Shown: positions 1-14,555, numbered from the stretch's first letter. The stretch is DNA of 15,645 nt from a virus (IMGVR_UViG_3300037454_000603:1-15645); one strand, 5' to 3'. Notes: a model not told the origin generated them from the letters alone. A program made the numbers and translations.

Positions 1-31
1 CCCCTTTAATTTTTAAACTAATTGTTAATAA

Positions 32-52
32 TGAAATACCTCTCCAATTTCA
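32..52. repeat. boundary palindrome J0
   Basis: TGAAAT-acctctcca-ATTTCA with TTAATAA/TTGTTAA extended arms. Confidence 0.9.
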
Positions 53-125
53 TTGTTAATATTTAGGAAAAGTATGAACCCCTTATTAAAATTGAAATGG
101 GGGGGGCGGATTTAAAAAAAAGAAT

Positions 126-782: not shown

Positions 783-845
783 TGAAATACATTGTGCCGC
801 GACACCAATAACAAAATATGAACAGTGAAATGTGTTTGCATTTCA
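783..845 (+). repeat. composite boundary site J1
   Basis: TGAAAT 783, GCCGCGAC 796, palindrome 826-845 (N8). Confidence 0.85.
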
Positions 846-914
846 ATCTTAACAATTCCTTAATATTAAAATATCCAACCCCTATTTCAAAATTAATCTT
901 TTATTAAAAAAGAA

Positions 915-1526: not shown

Positions 1527-1591
1527 TGAAATAGTTGGTCTGGCGGCGCGAGGTAAATAAATATGAACAATGAAATACCGTCCCTATTTCA
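1527..1591 (+). repeat. composite boundary site J2
   Basis: TGAAAT 1527, GGCGGCGC 1542, palindrome 1571-1591. Confidence 0.9.
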
Positions 1592-1655
1592 ACATTAACA
1601 ACTGCTTAATAATTAAAACAACTAACAAATTAATAAAAACTTGACATTTTAACCC

Positions 1656-2830: not shown

Positions 2831-2839
2831 ATCGCCTTT
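2815..2839 (+). terminator. intrinsic terminator
   Basis: AAAGGCGATT/AATCGCCTTT plus T-tail. Confidence 0.85.
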
Positions 2840-2875
2840 TGTTTTTTCTTTTAACTATTAATTAAATGTGAACAC

Positions 2876-2942
2876 TGAAATAGTTCGGTGCCGCGGCACG
2901 ATGTAAACAGAATGTGAATATTGAAATACCCATCCTATTTCA
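2876..2942 (+). repeat. composite boundary site J4 (convergent junction)
   Basis: TGAAAT 2876, GCCGCGGC 2890, palindrome 2922-2942. Confidence 0.9.
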
Positions 2943-2957
2943 ATGTTAATAAATAAG

Positions 2958-2985
2958 AAAAGGTTCAGATAAAACTGAACCTTTT
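2958..2985 (-). terminator. intrinsic terminator
   Basis: AAAAGGTTCAG/CTGAACCTTTT. Confidence 0.85.
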
Positions 2986-2990
2986 ATACT

Positions 2991-3392
2991 TTAAATCAAA
3001 ACTCTATAACTATTCTTACTATCTCTAAACTGTTCAATATTATCATCGGCAATATTATAAACAGCATATAATCCTCTACAAGCTTCCCCAATGAACATAT
3101 ATTCCGTATCATCATAAAAGAATACGTCGCCGTTTTTCATTTCTGAAAGTTTTTTCATTTCGATGATAGTCGGTACTTCAAAGTCATAGCACCTTGTATA
3201 AGCGATTGCCACTCCTATTGTAAAATCAAAATCATCATCGGGGTGACATCTTGCTACACCAACTTTGCCTGTTGTTGTATCATAACAAATAGTTGCATTT
3301 GAGTTAGGAATAGTTCCTATATAGCAAGAACGATTTCTCTTTGCATGGTCATATGCTCTTTTTGCCCACTTATAAAATTCTTCTCTTGTCAT
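2991..3392 (-). CDS. hypothetical phage protein with GKVGxARxHPDD motif (paralog of 5453..5857)
   Basis: 133 aa; SD GGAGGG; the G-x-A-x-C-H-P-D-D...G-x-A-I-A motif is recalled from small phage families (T7 gp1.7 / N4 gp49-like), unverified. Confidence 0.85.
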   Translation of the reverse strand: MTREEFYKWAKRAYDHAKRNRSCYIGTIPNSNATICYDTTTGKVGVARCHPDDDFDFTIGVAIAYTRCYDFEVPTIIEMKKLSEMKNGDVFFYDDTEYMFIGEACRGLYAVYNIADDNIEQFRDSKNSYRVLI

Positions 3393-3445
3393 AATATCAA
3401 GTCCCTCCTAGTTTTTAAGAGTTTTCTTTCTCTTATCTTGGTATA

Positions 3446-3474
3446 ATTATAACACAAAACCCGCTTTTAGTCAA
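3446..3474 (-). promoter_or_regulatory. sigmaA-type promoter
   Basis: TTGACT-17-TATAAT. Confidence 0.85.
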
Positions 3475-3525
3475 TGAATTAATTGTTAATTTTTCTTTAA
3501 AATATTGTGAACACTTTGTTACTGT

Positions 3526-3546
3526 TGAAATCGTAGCACTATTTCA
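3526..3546. repeat. boundary palindrome J5
   Basis: TGAAAT-cgtagcact-ATTTCA. Confidence 0.9.
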
Positions 3547-3600
3547 ATGTTCACATAACGTTAATAATTAATTCTTTTAATCAATTCATAAAAAGTTTAC

Positions 3601-3629
3601 TTGACAAATTCAGAAATATATGTTATACT
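3601..3629 (+). promoter_or_regulatory. sigmaA-type promoter
   Basis: AAAGTTTAC-TTGACA-17-TATACT. Confidence 0.85.
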
Positions 3630-3685
3630 ATATACAGAAGATAAGGAAAGACCTTATCAAATAAAAAGAAAGAGAGTGATTTTAA

Positions 3686-3889
3686 ATGATTACAATTGAA
3701 GTAGTTGACTGGTATGACGGTGACAGAGAGGTTATAGGCATAGCACATTCTTTTAGTGAAGCCGCGGCAATTCGTAACGCAAGATATGAAGATACTGATG
3801 ATGAAGCTGATGTTAATTGCTATATGGGCGGTGAATGTGTAGACCACATTGTATCACTTTATAGTCCTTGTGATGATGAAGATTATTAA
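3686..3889 (+). CDS. small highly acidic protein
   Basis: 67 aa, 18 D/E versus 3 R and no K; own promoter and terminator. Confidence 0.85.
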   Translation: MITIEVVDWYDGDREVIGIAHSFSEAAAIRNARYEDTDDEADVNCYMGGECVDHIVSLYSPCDDEDY

Positions 3890-3913
3890 AAGAGAGGGCG
3901 TAAGCCTTCTCTT
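3890..3913 (+). terminator. intrinsic terminator
   Basis: AAGAGAGGGC/GCCTTCTCTT plus T-tail. Confidence 0.8.
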
Positions 3914-3933
3914 TTTTAACATTCTTTAAACGA

Positions 3934-3954
3934 TGAAATCTGGACGACATTTCA
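3934..3954. repeat. boundary palindrome J6 (convergent junction)
   Basis: TGAAAT-ctggacgac-ATTTCA between two terminators. Confidence 0.9.
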
Positions 3955-3970
3955 TTATTCATAATTAAGA

Positions 3971-3997
3971 AAAGAGTTGAGATAAACTCAACTCTTT
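3971..3997 (-). terminator. intrinsic terminator
   Basis: AAAGAGTTGAG/CTCAACTCTTT. Confidence 0.85.
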
Positions 3998-4374
3998 TTA
4001 ACGATATTTATTCCCTTTTCAACTAAGTACTGAATTGCAAGTTCATTTTTTGAATAGTTCAAGATTTGATTAATAGAAACATTTTCAGCTTTTGTATAAT
4101 AAGTCTTTAATAAAATTCGTGTAGTATCATTCTTCCACTGTTTAAGCGGTTTAATGTATCTATTCCACAAATTAAAATGAATAACTTTTCCTTTTTTCTT
4201 ATTTTGAGAATAAAAGCCATAACACCCGCTAAATTTTTCTACATTTGCCCAAGTAACTACTTCCGTTTCCTCTACACTACTTTCTTTTTCATCAATAATT
4301 ACTAACCATGAATCAGACCGTACTTCTTCATCATTAAAATAAGTATCCTTGTGTTTGTAATAGCAACCCAACAT
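3988..4374 (-). CDS. hypothetical protein
   Basis: 128 aa; SD GAAAGGA; promoter 4412-4440; terminator overlaps the TGA stop. Confidence 0.85.
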   Translation of the reverse strand: MLGCYYKHKDTYFNDEEVRSDSWLVIIDEKESSVEETEVVTWANVEKFSGCYGFYSQNKKKGKVIHFNLWNRYIKPLKQWKNDTTRILLKTYYTKAENVSINQILNYSKNELAIQYLVEKGINIVKKS

Positions 4375-4411
4375 TTAAATCAAGTCCTTTCTTAATCTTT
4401 ATTGTACTTAC

Positions 4412-4440
4412 ATTATACCACATTAATTCCATTTTGTCAA
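4412..4440 (-). promoter_or_regulatory. sigmaA-type promoter
   Basis: TTGACA-17-TATAAT. Confidence 0.85.
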
Positions 4441-4479
4441 CCCCTTTCTCAAACTTAATTGTAAACATTTTATTACGAC

Positions 4480-4545
4480 TGAAATACCGTCTATATTTCA
4501 TCGTTCACAATTTAAGTTAATCTCGCGCCGCCGTACTATATTTCA
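4480..4545 (-). repeat. composite boundary site J7 (reversed)
   Basis: Palindrome 4480-4500, GCGCCGCC 4525, ATTTCA 4540. Confidence 0.9.
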
Positions 4546-4609
4546 GTATTCACACTACGTTAATAATTAAATCACTTAACCAATTAACAAAAACTTAAAT
4601 AAATAACTA

Positions 4610-4638
4610 TTGACTTTTAATATAATTTATGGTATAAT
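4610..4638 (+). promoter_or_regulatory. sigmaA-type promoter (upstream of tandem pair)
   Basis: TTGACT-17-TATAAT. Confidence 0.8.
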
Positions 4639-4728
4639 ATATTCAGAAAAGAAAAAGAGAACAGAAAAAATCAGAAACCAAACTGAGAGATTTGGTTAAG
4701 TAAAAAAACAAATTAAAAAAAAGTTTAC

Positions 4729-4757
4729 TTGACAAAATCGAAAAAATATGGTATAAT
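4729..4757 (+). promoter_or_regulatory. sigmaA-type promoter (downstream of tandem pair)
   Basis: AAAGTTTAC-TTGACA-17-TATAAT. Confidence 0.85.
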
Positions 4758-4855
4758 AAATGTAGAAAAGAGAGAGAGAGAGAAAACAAAACAAAATCCA
4801 TAACAACCAAACTGAAAGTCAGCCGTAGACGTTAAAACGGAGAAAGTAGGTAAAT

Positions 4856-5275
4856 ATGGCAAACGTAACTGGCACTAACACTGAGAACAAGGCAATGACC
4901 ACAAGAGAGTTCTACACCGCTGTCATCAATGCAAATGTGGCTGAGGACGTAACCAAGTTCGCAGAGAACGCACTCGCAAAGCTCGATGAAAAGAACGCAA
5001 AGAGAAAGGCTGAGGGTAGCAAGACCGCTAAGGAAAACGTAGCTATCAAGGCAAATCTTGTTGCCGCTATGGAAAAGGGCGTTACTTACACTGCCGCAGA
5101 ACTGTTCGCACTGGGCGTTGAGGGTGTAACTTCCACACAGAAAGCAAGCGCACTGATTCGTCAGGTAGTTAAGACGGGTGAAGCGGTTGAGAGTGAAATC
5201 AAGATAAAGGGCAAGGGTAAGGTCAAGGGTTACACTCTTGTTACTTCTGAGGACGACGAAACCGTTGAGGAATAA
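4856..5275 (+). CDS. putative DNA-binding protein: coiled-coil N-terminus plus winged helix-turn-helix (paralog of 6938..7345)
   Basis: TYTAAEL...STQKASALIRQVVKTG...KGKVKGYTL matches a wHTH helix-turn-helix plus beta wing pattern; codon choice (TTC, AAC, AAG) differs from neighbours. Confidence 0.8.
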   Translation: MANVTGTNTENKAMTTREFYTAVINANVAEDVTKFAENALAKLDEKNAKRKAEGSKTAKENVAIKANLVAAMEKGVTYTAAELFALGVEGVTSTQKASALIRQVVKTGEAVESEIKIKGKGKVKGYTLVTSEDDETVEE

Positions 5276-5280
5276 AAAGA

Positions 5281-5298
5281 GAGGGGCATTTGCCCCTT
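5281..5298 (+). terminator. intrinsic terminator
   Basis: GAGGGGC/GCCCCTT plus long T-tail. Confidence 0.85.
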
Positions 5299-5352
5299 TT
5301 CTTTTTTCTTTTAATTTGTTAAAATTTTTAACTATTAACCAATTATGAACAC

Positions 5353-5418
5353 TGAAATAGTTGGTGCCGCGGCGCAATGTAAATAGAATATGAACGTTGA
5401 AATGCTAATTCAATTTCA
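5353..5418 (+). repeat. composite boundary site J8 (convergent junction)
   Basis: TGAAAT 5353, GCCGCGGC 5366, palindrome 5398-5418. Confidence 0.9.
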
Positions 5419-5440
5419 TTATTAACATTTTTATAATAAA

Positions 5441-5468
5441 GAAAATGTCCGATTATTCGGACATTTTC
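5441..5468 (-). terminator. intrinsic terminator
   Basis: 12-bp stem GAAAATGTCCGA/TCGGACATTTTC. Confidence 0.8.
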
Positions 5469-5857
5469 ACATCAATCATTTCAAATAGTATCGGACTATC
5501 ATTCCATGTGAGATATTCAGAATGTGATATCAAATCTACAACTTGATTATTACAGTTTTTGCCAATATAACGGTATTTCTCACCACGCCAGAGAAAAACT
5601 TCTCCATTTTTCATCTCACAAAGTCTTTTATATACCGTGAGTTTAGGAAACTCTTTACCTGTACAACGGCAGTAAGCAAGAGCAATACCGTAATCTCTTA
5701 TTTTTTCATCATCGGGGTGAAGTCTTGCCATGCCCACTTTGCCGTTTCTCTCGTTTACTACAAAAGTATAAACATCTCTTGTAATAACTCTATACTTGTC
5801 GCGGTTGATACTGTCCGCAGTCTTGTGTACCCAGTCAAGCAGTTCATTTTTGTTCAT
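5453..5857 (-). CDS. hypothetical phage protein with GKVGxARxHPDD motif (paralog of 2991..3392)
   Basis: 134 aa; shares GKVG.AR.HPDD, IA.AY.RC and EMKNG.VF with 2991..3392. Confidence 0.85.
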   Translation of the reverse strand: MNKNELLDWVHKTADSINRDKYRVITRDVYTFVVNERNGKVGMARLHPDDEKIRDYGIALAYCRCTGKEFPKLTVYKRLCEMKNGEVFLWRGEKYRYIGKNCNNQVVDLISHSEYLTWNDSPILFEMIDVKMSE

Positions 5858-5909
5858 AATTTTAATTCCTTTCTGGTTTTTAGAGTTTTCCTTCTCTTAT
5901 CTTGATTAT

Positions 5910-5938
5910 ATTATAACACATATTCATCGAATTGTCAA
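5910..5938 (-). promoter_or_regulatory. sigmaA-type promoter
   Basis: TTGACA-17-TATAAT. Confidence 0.85.
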
Positions 5939-5984
5939 TAGGTTTTTTTCAATTTTATTTGTAAACTATTTATGAATATGTTGC

Positions 5985-6037
5985 GCCGCGGCACTTATGG
6001 AATAATTATGAACAGTGAAATACTGTCCCCTATTTCT
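5985..6037 (+). repeat. degenerate composite site J9
   Basis: GCCGCGGC 5985; TGAAAT-N10-ATTTCT 6016-6037. Confidence 0.75.
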
Positions 6038-6114
6038 AAATTAATATTTTGTTAAAATAGGCAAAATCACCAAACTTTACTCTTATTTTTGTACAATTTT
6101 TTATAAAAAAGTTA

Positions 6115-6143
6115 TTGACATTTTTATTATTATATGATATAAT
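6115..6143 (+). promoter_or_regulatory. sigmaA-type promoter
   Basis: TTGACA-17-TATAAT with TG extension. Confidence 0.85.
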
Positions 6144-6293
6144 ATATATAGAGAAAAGGAAGAGGGAAAGAGAGGGAAACGGGACTGCCCTTGTAAAAAA
6201 ATACTTTTCCGACCCATTAAGGCGCCACAACGGGGAACACTGGCTTAACCCTTGACTATTCTCTATTAATAATATTTGAAAGGAATTGATTCT

Positions 6294-6692
6294 ATGAGTT
6301 ACGAAAGAATAACAACCATTTTTGACGGTATAGCAATCCCCGAAGAAATTATTTTAAGTAATGTTTTAGATGATTTTATCAACAAAACCAAAACTAAGGT
6401 AGAAATATTCGACCGTTGTATAGCATATCATAGTATTTACCCTCATGAGTTGAACGGAGATTGGCTTGAGGAGTATTTAAGAGATATGGGATATATTGTT
6501 TTTGATGAATATATGTCTTACCTTTATCTTGGTAGAAGTATTATGTCAGTCGGAGATGATACGGGTACTTGCTCTTTAATAATGGATAACTTGCCCAATT
6601 TTCCTGATTACACTTCTGAAATTGACGAGTTGATTAAATTAGTTTTCCCCGACTACGAACCACATAGATATCTTATAAATTGGTATCTTTGA
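6294..6692 (+). CDS. acidic hypothetical protein
   Basis: ATG 6294 after SD GAAAGGA (track start 6276 is TTG); terminator 6700-6727. Confidence 0.85.
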   Translation: MSYERITTIFDGIAIPEEIILSNVLDDFINKTKTKVEIFDRCIAYHSIYPHELNGDWLEEYLRDMGYIVFDEYMSYLYLGRSIMSVGDDTGTCSLIMDNLPNFPDYTSEIDELIKLVFPDYEPHRYLINWYL

Positions 6693-6699
6693 TTTAACT

Positions 6700-6727
6700 A
6701 AACCGAGAGCAGAAATGTTCTCGGTTT
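6700..6727 (+). terminator. intrinsic terminator
   Basis: AAACCGAGAGCA/TGTTCTCGGTTT with GAAA loop. Confidence 0.85.
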
Positions 6728-6746
6728 ATTTCTTATTTGTGAACAA

Positions 6747-6767
6747 TGAAATCCCTTTCCTATTTCA
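6747..6767. repeat. boundary palindrome J10
   Basis: TGAAAT-ccctttcct-ATTTCA. Confidence 0.9.
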
Positions 6768-6793
6768 ACTTTAACACCCCATTCACAATTAAC

Positions 6794-6831
6794 TGTAACC
6801 ATTCTGTAACTATTTGTAACCGAATTGTAAT
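6794..6831 (+). promoter_or_regulatory. four phased TGTAA(C/T) hexamers forming two WalR/OmpR-type boxes
   Basis: TGTAAC-N5-TGTAAC (6794-6810) and TGTAAC-N5-TGTAAT (6815-6831) abutting the -35. Confidence 0.6.
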
Positions 6832-6859
6832 TGACTTTATCCCTATTGTATGATATAAT
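6831..6859 (+). promoter_or_regulatory. sigmaA-type promoter
   Basis: TTGACT-17-TATAAT with TG extension. Confidence 0.85.
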
Positions 6860-6937
6860 ATAGTTACAGTAAAGGAGAGGTAAAGACAACCACTCCACAA
6901 CAACTTAGACCGCCCAAGGGGCAGAAAGAGGTACAAT

Positions 6938-7345
6938 ATGACACAGAGAGAATTTTTTGAAGTAATCGCAAATGGCACTGGTAAGGTATCTTACAAGAAC
7001 GGTGAAAACACTGTTTTTAAGACCATTGATATCAATGACCCCGATATCAAGGAGTACGCAAAGTCGGCTATCGAGAAGCTTAATGCTAAGAACGAAAAGC
7101 GTAAGACAGAAGGAAGCAAGACCGCAAAGGAAAATGAGCCTATCAAGGCAAATATCATTAAGCTTTTTGAGGATAACCCTCAGACAGTTTATACCGCAAA
7201 GAACATTGCTGATAAGATAGGTATTTCCACACAGAAGTCTTCTGCACTTCTTCGTCAGATAGTATCAACTGGCAGAGTTGATGTTTTTGACACCAAGAAC
7301 GAAGAGAAGAAGAAGGTTAAGGGATATCAGTTTAAGGGTGAATAA
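6938..7345 (+). CDS. putative winged-helix DNA-binding protein (paralog of 4856..5275)
   Basis: Shares MT.REF, K..KRK.EGSKTAKEN..IKAN, YTA, STQK.SAL.RQ.V..G and KVKGY with 4856..5275. Confidence 0.8.
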   Translation: MTQREFFEVIANGTGKVSYKNGENTVFKTIDINDPDIKEYAKSAIEKLNAKNEKRKTEGSKTAKENEPIKANIIKLFEDNPQTVYTAKNIADKIGISTQKSSALLRQIVSTGRVDVFDTKNEEKKKVKGYQFKGE

Positions 7346-7349
7346 GATT

Positions 7350-7369
7350 AAGAGGGCATATGCCCTCTT
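7350..7369 (+). terminator. intrinsic terminator
   Basis: AAGAGGGC/GCCCTCTT plus T-tail. Confidence 0.85.
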
Positions 7370-7396
7370 TTTCTTTTTTAAAGTAATTGTTAACAA

Positions 7397-7417
7397 TGAA
7401 ATTGGATTGGCATTTCA
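7397..7417. repeat. boundary palindrome J11
   Basis: TGAAAT-tggattggc-ATTTCA. Confidence 0.9.
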
Positions 7418-7493
7418 CCGTTCATAATTCGTTAATTGTTAAAACGACGAAACTAATTTACATATAATTTACAATTAAATTTTCCAAAACCTG

Positions 7494-7522
7494 TTGACAA
7501 TTTGACTTTTATGTGCTATAAT
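7494..7522 (+). promoter_or_regulatory. sigmaA-type promoter
   Basis: TTGACA-17-TATAAT. Confidence 0.85.
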
Positions 7523-7608
7523 ATAGATACAGTAAGGGGAACGAAAACCTTACAAAACAAAGTAAAGTGACGTGTACAACACTTAAAAACCAGAAAGGAT
7601 TTGATTTT

Positions 7609-8073
7609 ATGGCAAGGATAAAAAACAGCAAGAAAGAACTTAATTTGACAGTAGATAGTAAGCAGTTCCGAGAAATTAACAGACAGAAATGTATAAGAAA
7701 GCGTGACATTCGCTCTCTCACAAAAATTGCAGACGGTTTCACTAATGCCGCAAATGATGATGAAATACTCCGTCTAGCTCGAGAGATAGTTTATCAGGGA
7801 CAGAGAAAGGAAAAAGCAATTATTAATGAAATCAATCTTACTAATATTAAAGAAAAACTTCTTGAAAATGTTAGTCAGGGAGATATGTTTACACTTGATA
7901 GTGTATATAAAATTCTTTGGGAAACCAAAACTTCCCCAAAGGGAGCACATCTTGGTCATGCACTTCTCGCCGCACTTGATGACCTTGTAAAAGACAATGT
8001 ACTTGAAAGAAAAACAATGGTGCATGATGTACCCAGTGGCACTAGCCATGTAACCGTTTATACGGTGCTTTAA
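7609..8073 (+). CDS. basic hypothetical protein with possible C-terminal winged helix
   Basis: ATG 7609 after SD GAAAGGA; C-terminal FTLDSVYKIL...LLAALDDLVKDNVLER...VYTVL resembles a wHTH (inference). Confidence 0.8.
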   Translation: MARIKNSKKELNLTVDSKQFREINRQKCIRKRDIRSLTKIADGFTNAANDDEILRLAREIVYQGQRKEKAIINEINLTNIKEKLLENVSQGDMFTLDSVYKILWETKTSPKGAHLGHALLAALDDLVKDNVLERKTMVHDVPSGTSHVTVYTVL

Positions 8074-8076
8074 TAA

Positions 8077-8100
8077 AAAGGGGTGAGAAATCACCCCTTT
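8077..8100 (+). terminator. intrinsic terminator
   Basis: AAAGGGGTGA/TCACCCCTTT with GAAA loop. Confidence 0.85.
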
Positions 8101-8124
8101 TCTTTTTGAAGTAATTGTTAACAA

Positions 8125-8145
8125 TGAAATACCAACCCCATTTCT
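8125..8145. repeat. boundary palindrome J12 (one mismatch)
   Basis: TGAAAT-accaacccc-ATTTCT. Confidence 0.8.
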
Positions 8146-8215
8146 GTAGTTACAATTCCTTAATATTTATTTTACAAAATCTTTATAAAAAATACAAGAA
8201 ATAATCCTTTTTTTC

Positions 8216-8224
8216 TGTTATAAT
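8216..8224 (+). promoter_or_regulatory. extended -10 promoter, no recognisable -35
   Basis: TGTTATAAT about 33 bp upstream of ATG 8257. Confidence 0.6.
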
Positions 8225-8256
8225 AAATATAAAGAAAACAAAAGGAGTTGTTTAAA

Positions 8257-8484
8257 ATGAAAGAAAAAATCTTTGAAAACTTAGGGTATGTAGGTTTAGC
8301 AGGGCTAATAATTGCACAATGTATCATTGGTAAATGGTACATTGCAGGTCAGGCAACTTATTTGCTTTGTAATTTAATTTTTCTGTCAAGGTCTTTCATA
8401 CTTAAAAGACCAGTAGCGGATAAGATTAAAGACAGTTCATGTACAGCAATTACAATTGGTTTAATTTTACTTGCATTAAGATAG
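8257..8484 (+). CDS. small membrane protein, about 3 hydrophobic segments
   Basis: ATG 8257 after SD AAGGAG; three hydrophobic stretches; ends at TAG. Confidence 0.8.
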   Translation: MKEKIFENLGYVGLAGLIIAQCIIGKWYIAGQATYLLCNLIFLSRSFILKRPVADKIKDSSCTAITIGLILLALR

Positions 8485-8496
8485 GGGGATTTAAAA

Positions 8497-8673
8497 ATGA
8501 ATAGATATTATTTAAGTTTTGTATGCTTAGAAACTGATTATGAATATGGCTTTACCGCGACTTGTGAAAATACAACAGAAGCAATATCAATTGTTAGAGA
8601 TAAGCTTTTTGAAATGTTAACCGCAGTACTCCCAAAAGTTACATTAGTTCTAAAAGATTTAATAATTTGTTAA
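8497..8673 (+). CDS. 58-aa hypothetical protein MNRYYLSFVCLETDYEYGF...
   Basis: Not in the track; SD AGGGGG; terminator at the stop. Confidence 0.75.
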   Translation: MNRYYLSFVCLETDYEYGFTATCENTTEAISIVRDKLFEMLTAVLPKVTLVLKDLIIC

Positions 8674-8696
8674 GAGTTGAGATTTTCTCAACTCTT
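8672..8696 (+). terminator. intrinsic terminator
   Basis: AAGAGTTGAG/CTCAACTCTT. Confidence 0.85.
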
Positions 8697-8713
8697 TTCT
8701 TATTTATGAACGA

Positions 8714-8819
8714 TGAAATCCCTTCCCTATTTCATTATTCACAATTTTTCAATACCTTGTGCCGCCTTACTAAATTTCAGCGTTCACAATTCAGACAAAT
8801 ATGAATATGTTGCCGCGGC
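8714..8819 (-). repeat. composite boundary site J13 (reversed) plus extra GC box
   Basis: Palindrome 8714-8734, GCCGCC 8761, ATTTCA 8774, second GCCGCGGC 8812-8819. Confidence 0.9.
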
Positions 8820-8854
8820 GCAACAAATTAACAAAGAGTTTACAATTATATCCC

Positions 8855-8883
8855 TTGACAAATTGATGAATATAGTGTATAAT
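8855..8883 (+). promoter_or_regulatory. sigmaA-type promoter
   Basis: TTGACA-17-TATAAT. Confidence 0.85.
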
Positions 8884-8962
8884 ATATATGTAAGGTACAG
8901 AAAGACAATGCAATACGGCATAAATCTAAACTGTATCAAAAACTGAAAGGAATGATATAAAA

Positions 8963-9703
8963 ATGAGTAGTAAATTTATGGTTCTTGACGTTGAGGGTTA
9001 TTCGGCTTGCCGTCCATATGATATCGGCTTTAAAGTTACCGATAAAAGCGGAAAGACTTTTGAAGAACATTCCGTAGCAATAATGCCTGCTACATTTGAG
9101 AATATGTGCTATAAAGCAGACAAAGCACTTGTTAAAGGTTTGTCGGGCGCACACGAGATGGCACACCGCAACATTGAAGAAATATGCAACGATACACAGG
9201 ACAAATATATTAAATGCTTTGACATAGATAAGTTCTATTTTGCATTTGTTGCTATTATTCAAAAGTACAATATTAAAAGGATATGGGCGTACAATTGCAG
9301 TTTTGACAAAGCCGCATTAAATAGGCTTTTCGGTGATGAAAAGTTCGGCGTTATAAATTCAATGGTTGAATTTTGTGATATAATTCCTGCAATACTTCAC
9401 ACAAAATTGCTGAATAAAGAATACATCGACTTTTGTAAGAAAAATAAGTTTATAACTGAAAAAGGTAACATTCAGACAAAAGCAGAAGTCGTTTACAAAT
9501 TCTTAACAGGAAATTTAAATTTTGAAGAAGAACATACTGGACTTGCCGACGTTCAGATTGAAACAGAAATTTTGCTTACTGCCATGAGAGAAAGTAAGAA
9601 TGTAAAGCGCAAGCCTTGCCAAGCATGGAAAATTATTAGAGAATTTTGCGTAGTTAATGACATTGAACTTCCAACAGTAAGTTTTGAAGAAATGATGAAT
9701 TAG
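8963..9703 (+). CDS. DEDDh-family 3'-5' exonuclease
   Basis: ExoI VLDVEG, ExoII AYNCSFD, ExoIII EHTGLADV. Confidence 0.9.
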   Translation: MSSKFMVLDVEGYSACRPYDIGFKVTDKSGKTFEEHSVAIMPATFENMCYKADKALVKGLSGAHEMAHRNIEEICNDTQDKYIKCFDIDKFYFAFVAIIQKYNIKRIWAYNCSFDKAALNRLFGDEKFGVINSMVEFCDIIPAILHTKLLNKEYIDFCKKNKFITEKGNIQTKAEVVYKFLTGNLNFEEEHTGLADVQIETEILLTAMRESKNVKRKPCQAWKIIREFCVVNDIELPTVSFEEMMN

Positions 9704-9710
9704 TTAAAAG

Positions 9711-9733
9711 ACCGCCCGCAATTCACGGGCGGT
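9711..9733 (+). terminator. intrinsic terminator
   Basis: ACCGCCCG/CGGGCGGT. Confidence 0.8.
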
Positions 9734-9758
9734 TCATTTTTGAACGTAGTGTGAATAC

Positions 9759-9824
9759 TGAAATAGTTGGTGCCACGGCACAATATTACCCAAATGTTAA
9801 CAACGAAATGCCATCCATATTTCA
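9759..9824 (+). repeat. composite boundary site J14 (convergent junction)
   Basis: TGAAAT 9759, GCCACGGC 9772, CGAAAT-N9-ATTTCA 9804-9824. Confidence 0.85.
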
Positions 9825-9840
9825 TCGTTCACAAATAAGA

Positions 9841-9865
9841 AAAGGTTCAGAATATCTGAACCTTT
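9841..9865 (-). terminator. intrinsic terminator
   Basis: AAAGGTTCAGA/TCTGAACCTTT. Confidence 0.85.
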
Positions 9866-9868
9866 CTT

Positions 9869-10069
9869 TTACCTATTATACCAGACCTTTTTATTATTGT
9901 GGTCTATTATAATATTGCCCCTGTTTGCTTTTGTATCTCCTAAGCAAACTCTCATAGCTTCCTCAATATATTGAGATTCTCTATTCCACGAGATACAAGG
10001 CGGGTTAACGATAACATGATAGCCTTTGAATTTTTCTTTAAAAACTTCACCAATTGTTTTGTTTGACAT
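9869..10069 (-). CDS. hypothetical protein
   Basis: 66 aa; SD GAAAGG; second gene of a two-gene unit. Confidence 0.8.
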   Translation of the reverse strand: MSNKTIGEVFKEKFKGYHVIVNPPCISWNRESQYIEEAMRVCLGDTKANRGNIIIDHNNKKVWYNR

Positions 10070-10084
10070 AACATCACTGCCTTT

Positions 10085-10285
10085 CTAACTTAAATCTGCA
10101 TAAAAGTTCTTGTATATTACGTAGGGACGTTCTTCTAACTGTAACATAATCAATTCAACTTCACAATCTTTTAAGTTGGGATAATATAACTTTAAATGCT
10201 CTTCTACTGCCTGAACTGCTTTTACCCATGAAGAGTAAGATTTAATTATAGTAACTCCATCGTATTGAATACATATGCTTTGCAT
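10085..10285 (-). CDS. hypothetical protein
   Basis: 66 aa; SD GAAAGGA within the shared leader module. Confidence 0.8.
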   Translation of the reverse strand: MQSICIQYDGVTIIKSYSSWVKAVQAVEEHLKLYYPNLKDCEVELIMLQLEERPYVIYKNFYADLS

Positions 10286-10338
10286 AATATCAAATCCTTT
10301 CTAGTTTTTAAGAGTTTTCTTTCTCTTGTCTTGACTAT

Positions 10339-10367
10339 ATTATAACATATAAATGTTGATTTGTCAA
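10339..10367 (-). promoter_or_regulatory. sigmaA-type promoter
   Basis: TTGACA-17-TATAAT. Confidence 0.85.
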
Positions 10368-10397
10368 GAGGTTTAATTGTAAATTATTTATATACGT

Positions 10398-10418
10398 TGA
10401 AATATTATCTCTATTTCA
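10398..10418. repeat. boundary palindrome J15
   Basis: TGAAAT-attatctct-ATTTCA. Confidence 0.9.
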
Positions 10419-10442
10419 TTATTCATATTTTATTTAAAAAGA

Positions 10443-10463
10443 AAAGAGGGCATAGCCCTCTTT
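10443..10463 (-). terminator. intrinsic terminator
   Basis: AAAGAGGGC/GCCCTCTTT. Confidence 0.85.
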
Positions 10464-10467
10464 ATTT

Positions 10468-10917
10468 TTATTCTATTTTAATATTTTTAATCTGTCCCGC
10501 AAAAAGTTTTTCACAAGAAAGTTCCTGAATTATATCTGTTATTTCATGAAAATCATTTGAATAGAGATTAGGTTCAATTGTTATTCCGTTTACTAACTGA
10601 ATTTTGATTTTAAACTTTTGAGAACTATTACTTGCGGTTTTCTTTTCTTTATTATGATATGCGTTAAATTCATAAAAAAGTGCGGCAGGAAGACAATTTT
10701 CGTTAATGGGTCTATATAAGCAATCATAAGCATCATATTGATAATAACAACTTTCCGCTTCTTTCAGAAGTGCAGTTTCATGTTCTGTACCCTCTTCCGT
10801 AATCCACTTAATTGCGTCTTCATATCCCTTTTCATTGAATATAACTAAATATATTGCGTTTTCAGCATATTCCACAGGATTATAAGAATCATTGTATGCC
10901 TTAAAATTTTCAAACAT
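10468..10917 (-). CDS. two-domain hypothetical protein (C-terminal domain similar to 11210..11617)
   Basis: 149 aa; shared leader module; own promoter and terminator. Confidence 0.85.
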   Translation of the reverse strand: MFENFKAYNDSYNPVEYAENAIYLVIFNEKGYEDAIKWITEEGTEHETALLKEAESCYYQYDAYDCLYRPINENCLPAALFYEFNAYHNKEKKTASNSSQKFKIKIQLVNGITIEPNLYSNDFHEITDIIQELSCEKLFAGQIKNIKIE

Positions 10918-10972
10918 AACATCAAGTCCTTTCTAGTTTTTTTAAGAGTTTTCTTTCTCTTATCTTGATTAT

Positions 10973-11001
10973 ATTATAGCATATTTAGGGGAATAAGTCA
11001 A
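10973..11001 (-). promoter_or_regulatory. sigmaA-type promoter
   Basis: TTGACT-17-TATAAT. Confidence 0.85.
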
Positions 11002-11041
11002 TTAATTATTTGTATTTATTTTATTGCTAAATTGTGAACTT

Positions 11042-11093
11042 GCGCCAGCACAATGTTAACCAAATATGAATGATGAAATACCACTCTATTTCG
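11042..11093 (+). repeat. degenerate composite site J16
   Basis: GCGCCAGCACAATGT 11042; TGAAAT-N8-ATTTCG 11074-11093. Confidence 0.8.
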
Positions 11094-11147
11094 TCGTTTA
11101 CATAGTATTAATATTTAAAATTCTTAACTAATTAATAAAATATTTAC

Positions 11148-11176
11148 TTGACAAAATGAGATTTATATGTTATACT
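11148..11176 (+). promoter_or_regulatory. sigmaA-type promoter
   Basis: TTGACA-17-TATACT. Confidence 0.85.
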
Positions 11177-11209
11177 ATATATAGAAAATAAAGAAAGGTG
11201 GTCATAAAT

Positions 11210-11617
11210 ATGGCTTATAAAATGTTTGATAAAAATTTTGAGGAAATTTCTATTGATGGTGAATGGCGTTATCTTTATGTTACAGACTGGGAAGATTTTG
11301 TAGAAGAATTCGGCGATACATGGATTCTGGAAGGCATTTTTGAAGATGGTGTTTATGAGTATGATGATTACTATGAGAAGTGGTCAGAACTTGCAGAAAA
11401 CTCTTTTGCTTATAAAGAAATTTTAAAAAGAGTTTCAAATAGTGTTGAAAATACTAAGAAAAGATGGGGTATTGTTGTAACACTTGATACTGGCGAAAAG
11501 ATTAAAACTAATATAGTTCCCGTTTCAATAGAAGATGTACAGGAAGCAATTGGTGTACTGGTTAAACCTAGTATTCTTGGAATGAGAATAAAAAGTATAG
11601 AAATAGTTACGGAGTAA
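11210..11617 (+). CDS. two-domain protein with acidic aromatic N-terminus
   Basis: ATG 11210 after SD GAAAGGTGG. Confidence 0.85.
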   Translation: MAYKMFDKNFEEISIDGEWRYLYVTDWEDFVEEFGDTWILEGIFEDGVYEYDDYYEKWSELAENSFAYKEILKRVSNSVENTKKRWGIVVTLDTGEKIKTNIVPVSIEDVQEAIGVLVKPSILGMRIKSIEIVTE

Positions 11618-11626
11618 TCCGTAACT
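11605..11626 (+). terminator. intrinsic terminator
   Basis: AGTTACGGA/TCCGTAACT plus T-tail. Confidence 0.85.
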
Positions 11627-11648
11627 TTTTTGAACTAAATATGAACAC

Positions 11649-11714
11649 TGAAATACTTTCCTATTTCATCATTAACATTTTGTTAAATAACTTGCGCCGC
11701 CTTACCATATTTCA
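11649..11714 (-). repeat. composite boundary site J17 (reversed)
   Basis: Palindrome 11649-11668 (N8), GCGCCGCC 11694, ATTTCA 11709. Confidence 0.9.
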
Positions 11715-11768
11715 GACTTAACATTTCATTAATAATTAAATGCTTTGACCAATTCACAAAAAGTTTAC

Positions 11769-11797
11769 TTGACAAATTCCGATTTTTAGTGTATAAT
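11769..11797 (+). promoter_or_regulatory. sigmaA-type promoter
   Basis: AAAGTTTAC-TTGACA-17-TATAAT. Confidence 0.85.
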
Positions 11798-11829
11798 ATA
11801 GTTAAAGAAAACGAAAGGAAGTGCTTTTA

Positions 11830-12192
11830 ATGGCAAGATATGATGATTTAAACGAATTTAAGAACGAACGTGAGAAAATGAACGCAATCCGTGAGAGAGT
11901 ATCAAAAGTAATCTATGAGAGAATCAAACCAGAGTTCGGTGAAGAATTTGTGCGTTACATTCCTAAAGATATTGGAATAACACCAAATGCTTCTAAGGTT
12001 GCCAAGTATACCGTAGTTGCGGACGTTGGTGATGTAAAGGACAATGGCGGGTGTGATGTCGGAGTATGTGTAGAAATCACAGTCAAGGTCAAAAAGTGGA
12101 ATACTGTTGAAACCAAATCGGACAAAATAACATACGGTATAACACTTGATGATTATGACATTGAGTTAGAAGAGGAAAAAGAGGGGGAATAA
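11830..12192 (+). CDS. hypothetical protein
   Basis: ATG 11830 after SD GAAAGGA; weak similarity to 14564..14944. Confidence 0.85.
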   Translation: MARYDDLNEFKNEREKMNAIRERVSKVIYERIKPEFGEEFVRYIPKDIGITPNASKVAKYTVVADVGDVKDNGGCDVGVCVEITVKVKKWNTVETKSDKITYGITLDDYDIELEEEKEGE

Positions 12193-12201
12193 CCCCTCTT
12201 T
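12178..12201 (+). terminator. intrinsic terminator
   Basis: AAAGAGGGG/CCCCTCTTT plus T-tail. Confidence 0.85.
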
Positions 12202-12222
12202 TTTTGAACGAAATATGAACGT

Positions 12223-12290
12223 TGAAATGGAGATGGTGCCGCGGCGCAATGTTAACTAGATATTAATAGTGAAATATCAATCATATTTCA
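12223..12290 (+). repeat. composite boundary site J18
   Basis: TGAAAT 12223, GCCGCGGC 12238, palindrome 12270-12290. Confidence 0.9.
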
Positions 12291-12344
12291 TCGTTCATAT
12301 TTTGCCAATAATTAAAAGTTTAAACTTATTAATAAAAAGTTTAC

Positions 12345-12373
12345 TTGACAAATTCTAGTTTTTAGTGTATAAT
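12345..12373 (+). promoter_or_regulatory. sigmaA-type promoter (near-copy of 11769)
   Basis: AAAGTTTAC-TTGACA-17-TATAAT. Confidence 0.85.
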
Positions 12374-12401
12374 ATAGTTAAAGAAAAGGAGTTGAGTATC
12401 A

Positions 12402-12569
12402 ATGAAATTTAAAGAATACGTCGAAGGAGTAAAGAAAATGTTAGAAGAACACCCTGATTGGGGTGAATTAGAAATGACACAAGTAGAAAGGTGGGAAGGA
12501 GAGGACGTTTGTTTGCCTTGGCATGAAGAACCTTTTATGAGTTTTGAAGATGGAAGAATATATCTTTAA
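12402..12569 (+). CDS. 55-aa acidic protein MKFKEYVEGVKKMLEEHPDWGELEM...
   Basis: Not in the track; SD AAGGAG; directly after promoter 12345-12373. Confidence 0.85.
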   Translation: MKFKEYVEGVKKMLEEHPDWGELEMTQVERWEGEDVCLPWHEEPFMSFEDGRIYL

Positions 12570-12592
12570 TAATTGAAAAGGAGAGATTTAAA

Positions 12593-12778
12593 ATGGCAAC
12601 TTACACAGTAAATTTCGCACAGTGGTTTCCCTATGAGGTAGAAGCAGATAGTCCCGAAGAAGCAATCAATATAGCGCACGAAGATTTTGTTCAGAATATG
12701 TATAGAGCAGTAGTAACCACAGATTATGATGAGGTAATAGTTGAAGATGAAGACGGCAAAGAAGTAGTACACTATTGA
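12593..12778 (+). CDS. small acidic protein with EVEADSPEEA motif
   Basis: 61 aa, 15 D/E versus 2 K/R; SD AAGGAG. Confidence 0.85.
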   Translation: MATYTVNFAQWFPYEVEADSPEEAINIAHEDFVQNMYRAVVTTDYDEVIVEDEDGKEVVHY

Positions 12779-12789
12779 GTGTACTACTT
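12762..12789 (+). terminator. intrinsic terminator
   Basis: AAGTAGTACACT/AGTGTACTACTT plus T-tail. Confidence 0.85.
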
Positions 12790-12812
12790 TTTTATTAACA
12801 GAATATGTCCGA

Positions 12813-12833
12813 TGAAATACCAACCCAATTTCA
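12813..12833. repeat. boundary palindrome J19
   Basis: TGAAAT-accaaccca-ATTTCA. Confidence 0.9.
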
Positions 12834-12916
12834 TCCTTCACACCCTCTTAATAATTAAAAGTCTTAACCAATTAATAAAATTTTAACTTTAAATCCCTTA
12901 CCAGTTAACATTTATC

Positions 12917-12925
12917 TGTTATAAT
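12917..12925 (+). promoter_or_regulatory. extended -10 promoter, degenerate -35
   Basis: TGTTATAAT; only TTACCA-like sequence near the -35 position. Confidence 0.6.
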
Positions 12926-12970
12926 AATAATGTACTTAAAGAGTACAATAAATATTAAGGAGTTGTTACA

Positions 12971-13627
12971 ATGATAAAGAAAAATTATTATTTGATGTTG
13001 GACACGGAAACGGCAGGAAGTCTTAATAAACCATTAGTTTATGATATTGGCTTGGCAATAATCGACCGTAAAGGAAAAATTTACAAGTCTTATTCTCTTG
13101 TAATTTCAGAAATCTTTTACGGAGAAAAAGACCTCATGAAGTCAGCCTATTATGCCAAAAAAATTCCAATGTATTTAGATCATATTAAACAAGGTAAAAA
13201 AACCGTTACAAGTTTTTGGCAAATGAAACGACTTATTGAAAAGCTTTTCACGCTTTACAACATTAAAGCGGTGGTTGCCCATAATGCAAGTTTTGACATT
13301 AAAGCACTTAACAATACAATTAGCTTTTTATCTAATGGAAGTGAAAAATTTTTCTTTGATAGTAATGTCAATATTTGGTGTACTCTTGCTATGGCAAGGA
13401 GTACAATTTGCAAACAGCCAACTTATATAAAGTGGTGTAAAGAACACGGTTATTATTCGCGGAGAGGGGCGAGGGCAACGGCAGAAATTTTGTATAGGTT
13501 TATTAGTGGCAACAATAGTTTCATTGAATACCATACGGGATTGCAGGATGTTTTAATTGAAAAAGAAATTTTTGTTAGGTGTATGAGACAGCATAAGAAA
13601 ATGAACAAAAACCCAGTTAATTGGTAG
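12971..13627 (+). CDS. DEDDh-family 3'-5' exonuclease (paralog of 8963..9703)
   Basis: ExoI MLDTETAG, ExoII AHNASFD, ExoIII YHTGLQDV. Confidence 0.9.
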   Translation: MIKKNYYLMLDTETAGSLNKPLVYDIGLAIIDRKGKIYKSYSLVISEIFYGEKDLMKSAYYAKKIPMYLDHIKQGKKTVTSFWQMKRLIEKLFTLYNIKAVVAHNASFDIKALNNTISFLSNGSEKFFFDSNVNIWCTLAMARSTICKQPTYIKWCKEHGYYSRRGARATAEILYRFISGNNSFIEYHTGLQDVLIEKEIFVRCMRQHKKMNKNPVNW

Positions 13628-13631
13628 AATT

Positions 13632-13655
13632 TAAGTGGCGAGAAATTGCCACTTA
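13632..13655 (+). terminator. intrinsic terminator
   Basis: TAAGTGGC/GCCACTTA plus T-tail. Confidence 0.8.
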
Positions 13656-13674
13656 TTTCTTTTTTTATTAATAT

Positions 13675-13740
13675 TGAAATAGTTGGTGTCGCGGCACAAT
13701 GTTAACCAATTGTAAATGTAGAAATAGTTGCACTATTTCA
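13675..13740 (+). repeat. composite boundary site J20
   Basis: TGAAAT 13675, GTCGCGGC 13688, AGAAAT-N9-ATTTCA 13720-13740. Confidence 0.85.
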
Positions 13741-13794
13741 TCATTCACTGAATATTAATAATTAAAAGTCTTAACTAATTAAAGAAAGTTTAAC

Positions 13795-13823
13795 TTGACA
13801 TTTTAGAATAGTTGTGATATAAT
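13795..13823 (+). promoter_or_regulatory. sigmaA-type promoter
   Basis: TTGACA-17-TATAAT. Confidence 0.85.
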
Positions 13824-13849
13824 GAAGTTAAAGAAAAGGGGTGAGTTAA

Positions 13850-14080
13850 ATGATGTTAGTTTTAACAAAAGGTCTTGTGTGGTTTTATGTTTTAACTTTC
13901 TGCTGTCCTATCTTTTTAGCCAAAGCATACAAAAAAATTTTTAAACCTAAAGGAAAACAATGGTTTAAAATTCTTGATATTGTTGGTTATTTAGTGGTAT
14001 GGTCATCAAGAATATTCTTTTCATTTTGTGGAATTTTCCTATTATATATAATATATGTAGGTTGTAAAAATATTTTTTAA
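13850..14080 (+). CDS. small membrane protein, two hydrophobic segments
   Basis: SD AAGGGGTG; two TM-like stretches separated by a Lys-rich loop. Confidence 0.75.
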   Translation: MMLVLTKGLVWFYVLTFCCPIFLAKAYKKIFKPKGKQWFKILDIVGYLVVWSSRIFFSFCGIFLLYIIYVGCKNIF

Positions 14081-14092
14081 GGAGTGTTGAAA

Positions 14093-14431
14093 ATGAGTAC
14101 GAGAGATTACTGGATTGAATGTATTTATGATGTGATAATTGATATGGGATATAGTTTTTACGATTACTACACCGAGGAAGAGGGTTTGAACTGCACTGAC
14201 GTTTTGCCGTCAGAAGACTTGCTGTCAGACTTAGAACACGACATAAACGATATTATTAAAAATCTTGATTTAGATGTTTATTTGGACGGGCGGGAACTTT
14301 TATGTGAAATTTTAGATGAATTTCAGGACTATGCTATGTGCTTTGAAGTAATTAAAGATGAAGACTATGCCACAAAACTTGTAATAAGTTATTTACTGCC
14401 CGAAGTTGCATGGAAATTCACAAATTCTTAA
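14093..14431 (+). CDS. highly acidic protein, DNA-mimic candidate
   Basis: ATG 14093 after SD AAGGAG; 112 aa with 28 D/E versus 6 K/R. Confidence 0.85.
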   Translation: MSTRDYWIECIYDVIIDMGYSFYDYYTEEEGLNCTDVLPSEDLLSDLEHDINDIIKNLDLDVYLDGRELLCEILDEFQDYAMCFEVIKDEDYATKLVISYLLPEVAWKFTNS

Positions 14432-14436
14432 CAATT

Positions 14437-14456
14437 AAGACCCCTTTTGGGGTCTT
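14437..14456 (+). terminator. intrinsic terminator
   Basis: AAGACCCC/GGGGTCTT. Confidence 0.8.
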
Positions 14457-14473
14457 TAATTTTTTATGAACAA

Positions 14474-14495
14474 TGAAATACCCACTCCCATTTCT
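14474..14495. repeat. degenerate boundary palindrome J21 (convergent junction)
   Basis: TGAAAT-N10-ATTTCT. Confidence 0.75.
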
Positions 14496-14555
14496 TCCTT
14501 AACAATTTGCAAATATTTGAATAAGTCAAATTTTTTAACAGATTAAAGAAAAAAG

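Follow-up and report, generated by a model that had tools for sequence, protein, structure and literature searches.

One palindrome at each junction between transcription units in the putative early block of a phage genome

We analysed a stretch of 15,645 nt of viral DNA (IMGVR_UViG_3300037454_000603:1-15645, hereafter the window) and a 43-base palindrome that recurs in it between transcription units (TUs). The window is the first part of a contig of 178,943 nt that is circular (its ends overlap by 172 nt), the phage sequence has a GC content of 32.5%, and gene calling outside the window read TAG as glutamine. Some 30 small genes, arranged as 22 TUs on both strands, cover 61% of the window, which has seven intra-operon gaps; nearly all TUs combine an intrinsic terminator with a strong ribosome site and a consensus TTGACA-17-TATAAT promoter. 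Most of the encoded proteins have no family match in Pfam and PHROG scans. In these respects the window looks like an early or host-takeover block, as in SPO1, whose host-takeover module occupies the terminal ~12 to 20 kb and contains numerous small early genes that have strong host-type promoters and ribosome sites (PMC6873191); the part of that source consulted describes no repeated palindromic seam word for the SPO1 module.

The palindrome and its sites

The repeated unit is a 15-nt half-site, TRTKAAYRNTGAAAT (T-R-T-K-A-A-Y-R-N-T-G-A-A-A-T), in which ten positions are near-invariant and the positions between them act as free two-state choices. In the palindrome, two inverted half-sites (arms of 15 to 17 bp) face each other across a spacer of 8 to 10 bp. 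Half-site matches were called with a position weight matrix (PWM) at 12 bits or more. Genome-wide there are 78 such matches, 70 of which cluster within 175,282-15,816, a block of 19.3 kb spanning the contig join, against only 7 to 14 matches in total in shuffled genomes, which excludes chance. The window holds 22 inverted pairs. About ten other half-sites stand alone and are followed directly by a GC box of the form TGGTGCCGCGGCGCAA, 44 to 47 nt from the neighbouring palindrome, an arrangement referred to here as the composite form. The sites are the following, where J denotes a junction between TUs and E a cassette.

21..63, leftmost palindrome; the array runs on across the contig join to ~175,282
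815..856, J1 palindrome at a tandem minus-strand junction
1560..1602, J2 palindrome, serving both promoters of a divergent pair; composite half-site at 1516
2911..2953, J4 palindrome, convergent, flanked by the terminators of TU4(+) and TU5(-); half-sites 2911(+), 21.2 bits, and 2936(-), 19.3 bits
2815-2839(+) and 2958-2985(-), terminators flanking the J4 palindrome
2865..2910 (+), J4 composite add-on: half-site 2865-2882 and GC box 2889-2899, GGTGCCGCGGCAC-type
3515..3557, J5 palindrome, divergent; right border of cassette E08
3923..3965, J6 palindrome, convergent, in a spacer of 98 nt in its entirety; half-sites 3923(+) and 3948(-)
3889-3917(+), hairpin and T-run read directly, and 3970-3998(-), terminator, flanking the J6 palindrome
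4469..4556, J7 palindrome (4469-4511), followed by a GC box and, at 4539(-), a lone half-site; composite reversed in orientation
5387..5429, J8 palindrome, convergent, flanked by the terminators of TU8(+) and TU9(-); half-sites 5387(+) and 5412(-)
5274-5306 and 5441-5468, terminators flanking the J8 palindrome
5342..5386 (+), J8 composite add-on: half-site 5342-5359 and GC box 5365-5375
6005..6048, J9 site, left half strong and right half degenerate; GC box 5984-5994
9793..9835, J14 palindrome, convergent, flanked by the terminators of TU14(+) and TU15(-); half-sites 9793(+) and 9818(-)
9710-9734 and 9840-9866, terminators flanking the J14 palindrome
9748..9792 (+), J14 composite add-on: half-site 9748-9765 and GC box 9771-9781, GCCACGGC variant
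10387..10429, J15 palindrome at a tandem minus-strand junction, with promoter 10339-10367(-) on one side and terminator 10443-10463(-) on the other
11063..11104, J16 palindrome, divergent; left border of cassette E19
14463..14506, J21 palindrome with a 10-bp spacer, between the terminators of TU21(+) and TU22(-); half-sites 14463(+) and 14489(-)
14437-14456 and 14549-14581, terminators flanking the J21 palindrome
2213-2255, 6736-6778, 7386-7428, 8114-8156 (right half weak), 8703-8745, 11638-11679, 12259-12301, 12802-12844, and 13709-13751, other palindromes at tandem plus-strand junctions
8773(-), 11708(-), 12212(+), and 13664(+), composite half-sites at tandem plus-strand junctions
2933..3536 (-), cassette E08 (terminator, gene 2991-3392, promoter) between two palindromes
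11084..11658 (+), cassette E19 (gene 11210-11617) between two palindromes

The spacers differ among all copies, vary in length, and are asymmetric, with a polarity that is mostly uniform along the genome axis. Those of 9 bp have a higher GC content than the DNA around them and, regardless of gene orientation, tend to be C-rich on the plus strand; at J8, comparison of positions 5404-5412 with the related contigs JAEIGA010003988.1 and L013 (see below) showed a G-rich, possibly flipped, form in one of the two. At the left edge of the block (positions 175220-175420 of the contig), a cluster of outer hexamers (TGTGAAC, ATGAACA, TGTTCAT) occurs with no inner TGAAAT, so that the half-site itself consists of two words that can be separated.

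The GC box of the composite form is part of a genome-wide word, roughly CTTGCGCCGCSnnACCAT, which is found in the window at 795, 1535, 2889, 4523, 5365, 5984, 8811, 9771, 11692, 12237, and 13687 and at distances from gene starts that are not fixed. The most over-represented 8-mer, GCCGCGGC, has 26 copies outside the early block where 0.08 would be expected; they are mostly in one orientation and often intergenic, and several form inverted pairs 25 to 40 nt apart. The GC box is common to the phage of the window and to the sister phages described below.

Placement, conservation, and probable reading as double-stranded DNA

The 21 junctions, of which 11 are tandem, 5 divergent, and 5 convergent, have exactly one palindrome each, with one strong and one degenerate half at J9 and J12. 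All 53 half-site matches in the window are intergenic and fall in the gaps between TUs (P ~2e-22 under uniform placement), and none lies within a window gene or in any of the seven intra-operon gaps. The palindrome occurs with two terminators and no promoter as well as with two promoters and no terminator. A part of the promoter would be present twice at divergent junctions and be missing from convergent ones, and a part of the terminator would show the reverse; since there is one copy everywhere, the count follows the junction. With a half-site at both ends of every cassette, neighbours in any orientation rebuild one palindrome, and because any two cassette ends suffice for this, the sites between convergent terminators need no special case.

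An earlier, sequence-only reading had drawn attention to five tail-to-tail junctions (J4, J6, J8, J14, and J21) at which the site was said to lie between two terminators with no promoter nearby, and had concluded that the palindrome was unlikely to be just a repressor operator. The description was borne out in each respect. The TGAAAT motifs start at 2922, 3934, 5398, 9804, and 14474; intrinsic terminators are predicted on both the plus and the minus strand at all five junctions; and three of them, J4, J8, and J14, carry the composite form, with an extra half-site at 2865, 5342, and 9748 followed by a GC box. In the five convergent spacers, sigma-A-like matches reach 9/12 at best, with poor -10 or -35 hexamers, compared with 10 to 12/12 for the 22 working promoters, and these promoterless sites have PWM scores as good as those of the other sites. 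Where promoters are present, the palindrome lies upstream of the -35 element and never overlaps the promoter, as had also been claimed, the gap between palindrome edge and -35 being 19 to 217 nt (median, 61 nt; 21 promoters). At 17 of the 22 terminators, a half-site begins 5 to 17 nt beyond the terminator, a placement that a roadblock or insulator would fit.

Conservation was followed in metagenome contigs that use the same word and share 70 to 89% nucleotide identity with the window, namely JAEIGA010003988.1 (22.9 kb), Ga0247610_10005279 (13.6 kb), and three shorter ones. When J6 and J8 were compared with two relatives, the invariant half-site positions were identical in 80 of 80 cases and the degenerate positions in 42 of 56; identity was 11/36 (31%) in the spacer and 126/200 in the 25-nt flanks, the spacer thus diverging faster than its flanks. 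Judged from these alignments, the promoterless sites are kept by purifying selection and are clearly not decaying relics; since sites with no nearby promoter are held by selection, the seam has a job of its own. A classical repressor operator, the explanation that the sequence-only reading had argued against, can be set aside on these grounds together: the palindrome never overlaps a promoter, each junction has one site irrespective of its type, and the promoterless copies are under purifying selection.

An inverted repeat beside terminators could also act as RNA or as single-stranded DNA, that is, as an additional terminator, a site of processing, or a recombination site in folded form. This was addressed by an arm covariation test on 64 palindromes from the window phage and two relatives (2000 permutations). 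The variable arm positions match each other below chance (170 matches versus 199 +/- 9.4), which means that pairing is not selected and that perfect palindromes are avoided; no compensatory changes were seen. The palindromes fold as RNA with a mean of -6.4 kcal/mol, some copies reaching merely -0.4 to -3 kcal/mol, versus -14.5 kcal/mol for the neighbouring and much shorter terminator stems. They also lack the marks of a terminator, having AT-rich arms and no T-run after them, they are located downstream of strong terminators, and Rfam has no match within the early block. A hairpin function is scarcely credible in view of these observations, and the palindrome is probably read as double-stranded DNA.

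The promoters themselves occur in repeated modules. A 92-nt promoter-plus-leader module is found in five minus-strand TUs (623-714, 3390-3481, 5854-5945, 10283-10374, and 10917-11008) with 65 to 91% identity among its copies, and its long leader can form a small hairpin; the plus-strand TUs mostly use another module, of 86 to 121 nt.

Relatives, candidate binders, and a sister lineage

The contigs of the relatives were cut into cassettes at the palindrome centres. Shared cassettes are co-linear among the same-word contigs, and no cassette inversion between relatives was seen, every shared segment being in the same orientation. The cassette complement differs: E08 is absent from relative L013 and replaced in JAEIGA010003988.1, E19 is relocated two units further left, between E16 and E17, in three relatives, and several cassettes in the relatives have no counterpart in the window phage. 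Within 36 nt of a palindrome centre lie about 13 structural breakpoints between the window and its relatives, and 31% of the ends of high-scoring segment pairs lie within 45 nt of a centre, versus 10% of random points. Identity jumps from 70% to 93% between neighbouring cassettes. At the E07|E09 border of L013, the palindrome is chimeric, with homology to window positions 2414-2951 and 3540-4140 and a 16-nt overlap in the right arm. Recombination, one of the positional functions that the sequence-only reading had proposed, is thus upheld in the sense of an evolutionary seam, with breakpoints in or beside the element.

The breakpoints and the chimeric palindrome would also be expected of a mere homology patch for shuffling, as PeSLs are thought to be (see below), with no protein reader, and it is in keeping with such a patch that no dedicated recombinase gene was found and that sister lineages place other words at the same spots. 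We regard this explanation as quite improbable. Homology alone would favour long identical copies, whereas conservation here is position specific, with ten near-invariant positions per half-site set among two-state ones; the two arms avoid identity, and the invariant positions are held constant even though the spacer outpaces the flanks in divergence.

The word is private to the lineage of the window phage. Apart from this genome, IMG/VR yielded no match to the degenerate pattern and one unrelated match to the exact pattern, and 185,579 species genomes contained two single matches to the full palindrome, which is chance level. The half-site is not enriched in 401 genomes of Clostridia (at most 17 matches in a genome, versus 11 in the reversed-pattern control). 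With the palindrome at chance level and the half-site unenriched in Clostridia, no host regulon using the word was found.

Pfam searches of the 178.9-kb genome gave no match to ParB (PF02195; control genomes matched), to tyrosine recombinases or integrases (PF00589) or serine recombinases, to Y1 transposases/RAYT (PF01797) or DDE transposases, or to HU, RecA, RecT, or sigma-70 region 2. No T7-type RNA polymerase was matched in the genome either, in a search in which the control genome also failed to match. The lack of a ParB, recombinase, or Y1 gene removes the element from the parS, integron, lox/att, and REP-RAYT systems.

Two further explanations are affected by these searches. The palindrome, with inverted arms around an asymmetric spacer, is laid out like the core site of a site-specific recombinase (lox, att, or integron type), and cassettes that are bounded by sites and occur in both orientations could be inserted and excised by such an enzyme. 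This is very unlikely given that the genome has no tyrosine or serine recombinase and no Y1 or DDE transposase, that the spacers differ among all copies and vary in length, and that the arms do not co-vary in the manner of attC. A parS-like, packaging, DNA-entry, or condensation signal, which the sequence-only reading had listed among the positional roles, would agree with an array that is confined to one 19-kb block, possibly the first to enter the cell, and with the mostly constant spacer polarity along the genome axis. We consider it highly improbable. Neither a ParB nor an HU-type gene was found in the genome, some 24 copies over 19 kb do not fit a single packaging or entry signal, and the copies follow TU boundaries exactly, which such a signal would have no reason to do.

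Two winged-helix paralogues, g12 and g15 (4856-5275 and 6938-7345; 45% identity), are the sole early proteins with a DNA-binding fold; Pfam and PHROG scans detected no DNA-binding family in the others. The predicted fold (pLDDT 80.6) is weakly similar to MarR, PadR, and RTP-type proteins (best Foldseek E 0.02), and the ESM Atlas matches of the family, phrog_19455, are all from viruses. The corresponding units are 4610-5275 and 6831-7345, the first of which is driven from a tandem pair of consensus promoters, at 4610 and 4729, behind a 100-nt leader. As candidate readers of the lineage-specific word, g12 and g15 were rejected: phages with other words have an unchanged recognition helix, so that the pair cannot explain the word of this lineage, and the protein is just 53% identical among same-word relatives. 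A 107-amino-acid open reading frame at 62.6 kb has a weak match to a LacI-type helix-turn-helix (21.1 bits, versus a cut-off of 27) and is a lead only. DnaA was likewise discarded. The outer hexamer can spell TGTGNATAA, yet by position frequencies only ~1 in 28 half-sites would be perfect, and the invariant TGAAAT is not part of a DnaA box.

Sister phages L002 to L005, found through the winged-helix protein (47 to 56% identity), have the same cassette layout with other words at the junctions. Their early blocks contain perfect CcpA cre consensus sites, TGWAANCGNTNWCA, in numbers of 13 (L002), 13 (L003), 11 (L004), and 4 (L005); the 13 perfect sites of L002 (5800-17104) compare with 0.05 expected. 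Some of the sister cre palindromes (TGTAAACGATTACA) lie between convergent terminators, and one lies inside a promoter (6258-6271 within 6251-6278), which suggests that the sister phages dock or soak up the host carbon regulator CcpA. The window contains no perfect 14-bp cre match and three with one mismatch, versus 1.24 expected. The inner arms of its palindrome, TGAAAT and ATTTCA, correspond to the outer six bases of each cre half, with the central CG of cre replaced by 9 bp. In clostridia, CcpA can bind inverted hexamers across a variable spacer (crevar), with a core, TGTAAA/TTTACA, in which single changes abolished binding (PMC5263246). The conserved hexamer of our element is instead TGAAAT, and the outer hexamer, TRTKAA, has A at its fourth position in only 4 of 36 half-sites.

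Few other early genes could be assigned to a family. One encodes a 144-amino-acid protein (2396-2830) that matches NT5C-type 5'-deoxynucleotidases (28 bits; cut-off, 24.8). Two larger genes, 8963-9703 and 12971-13627, are 91 to 93% conserved in same-word relatives; one of them matches phrog_20187 (E 3e-30), and the other has a weak match to a 3'-5' exoribonuclease family (E 0.003) that is below the cut-off. Between promoter 6115-6143 and gene 6294-6692 lies an unusually long and GC-richer leader of ~150 nt (6144-6293) with no match in Rfam. At the right end of the window, the early block may have its boundary in a gene-free stretch of ~1 kb (15024-15645, continuing to ~16000). This stretch contains single half-sites at 15114, 15412, and 15799, a direct repeat (~15270-15345) that ends in CACCTAATYGCGGCGGCTTT, and AGTTAAAAGATTTAAC-type words resembling words of the sister lineage.

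Interpretation and comparison with known systems

Our working interpretation, held with modest confidence, is that the palindrome is a protein-docking seam or barrier that acts on the block as a whole and also serves as a site of cassette exchange, and that it is not an operator working promoter by promoter. A sequence-specific protein, probably a dimer and in our estimation more probably encoded by the phage than by the host, would read the palindrome as double-stranded DNA, and single half-sites would take one subunit next to the GC box. Each cassette would end in a half-site on both sides, so that neighbours rebuild one palindrome in a presumably untranscribed spacer. The bound protein would most likely affect the whole block, either as an insulator or barrier that separates strongly transcribed units or by providing a scaffold for shut-down. 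Related phages would gain, lose, and move cassettes at the repeated symmetric sequence, probably by general homologous recombination, and the symmetry of the palindrome would allow insertion in either orientation.

Several points weigh against this interpretation. Genome-content searches identified no binder of the palindrome. The non-transcribed state of the spacers is presumed from predicted terminators and promoters, and selection was assessed at two convergent junctions in two contigs that are related and not independent, a small sample. The repeated promoter and leader modules (90 to 120 nt) could have mediated cassette exchange in place of the palindrome, and the GC box of the composite form could be a phage-specific promoter element. 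Finally, at five promoters of what we term the class-A module, the palindrome centre is fixed at about -100, as expected of an upstream activator site, and one of the arms, the right one, belongs to the conserved 121-nt unit of the module (family D3).

The last point bears on a real though minority possibility, namely that the palindrome is an upstream transcription-factor site of the early promoters, for an activator or for a repressor acting at a distance, the convergent copies being carried along by cassette exchange. Every promoter has a site 19 to 217 nt upstream, and sister phages L002 to L005 have perfect cre sites at the same junctions, one of them inside a promoter. Against this, the sites at the five promoterless junctions score as well as the others, and those examined in relatives (J6 and J8) have kept 80 of 80 invariant positions, divergent junctions have one site for two promoters, and promoter distances outside class A are variable. 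Because five class-A sites lie near -100 and the sister lineage uses transcription-factor sites, control of promoters from a distance is conceivable. The sequence-only reading, which had placed the function in position rather than in control of initiation, was thus right as far as the classical operator is concerned and may have gone too far with respect to initiation in general, given the class-A sites and the sister cre sites.

A more specific version of the seam is that of a dedicated and so far undescribed phage system, in which symmetric protein-bound seams would wall off strongly transcribed early units as a barrier to topological effects or to read-through and double as orientation-independent docking points for exchange; the binder or exchange protein would belong to no known family, the vocabulary of words would turn over between lineages, and in the sister lineage the CcpA site of the host would have been taken into use at these places. 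We hold this version to be unlikely.

Among known systems, the seam is filed with the promoter-early stem-loops (PeSLs) of T4-type phages, as an element of that kind that is, however, symmetric, promoter independent, and of protein-site type. PeSLs are repeated regulatory sequences that flank small orphan early genes in a hyperplastic region; the repeat itself is a directional unit made of a sigma-70-type promoter and a terminator stem-loop, and no dedicated recombinase is known (PMC2839356, PMC4122927). Common to both are the insertion, deletion, and replacement of single cassettes between close relatives, bounded by the repeat, and the chimeric repeat copy left at the scar, as in L013. Unlike a PeSL, the palindrome is separate from promoter and terminator and present also where there is no promoter, it serves cassettes of both orientations, its positions are conserved in the manner of a protein site, and the host is a Gram-positive rumen bacterium.

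Other systems share single traits with the palindrome. Repetitive extragenic palindromes (REPs) and bacterial interspersed mosaic elements (BIMEs) of enterobacteria are imperfect palindromes of ~35 to 40 bp that lie outside genes, often between convergent genes, occur in composite forms, and bind proteins such as gyrase and IHF; REPs are found genome-wide, often transcribed at operon ends, form hairpins, and are tied to RAYT (Y1) transposases. Our element resembles them in its length of ~40 bp, its position outside genes, its convergent placement, and its composite forms, and differs in being confined to one block, with no RAYT match (PF01797) and no selection for a hairpin. The stoperators of Cluster A mycobacteriophages are asymmetric sites of 13 to 14 bp, oriented with transcription and located within transcribed regions genome-wide, where they are read by the monomeric immunity repressor of a temperate phage (PMC9283540, PMC6550527). 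Like our putative protein sites, they are many copies of one protein-binding word in intergenic gaps away from promoters, from which it follows that a repressor site need not overlap a promoter. The sites described here are, in contrast, palindromic, located past predicted terminators, and restricted to one block of a genome with no integrase match. The likeness to lox and FRT is one of layout only (inverted arms of 15 to 17 bp around a short asymmetric spacer of 8 to 10 bp); no tyrosine or serine recombinase was matched, and the spacers differ among copies and between orthologous sites. Integron attC sites differ in that no IntI-type match (PF00589) was found here and the arms do not co-vary.

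The early regions of large phages are a trial ground for new, mostly uncharacterised genes. To our knowledge, how such genes are kept expressible while these regions are shuffled is understood only for the PeSLs of T4-type phages, and the case described here shows a cleaner rule, in which each gap has a single symmetric site irrespective of how its neighbours are oriented. If the palindrome does insulate converging and diverging strong promoters from each other, it would provide a compact insulator part of natural origin for use in Gram-positive hosts. Should the sister lineage truly recruit CcpA, phage early expression or host carbon control would be tied to the feeding state of rumen bacteria.

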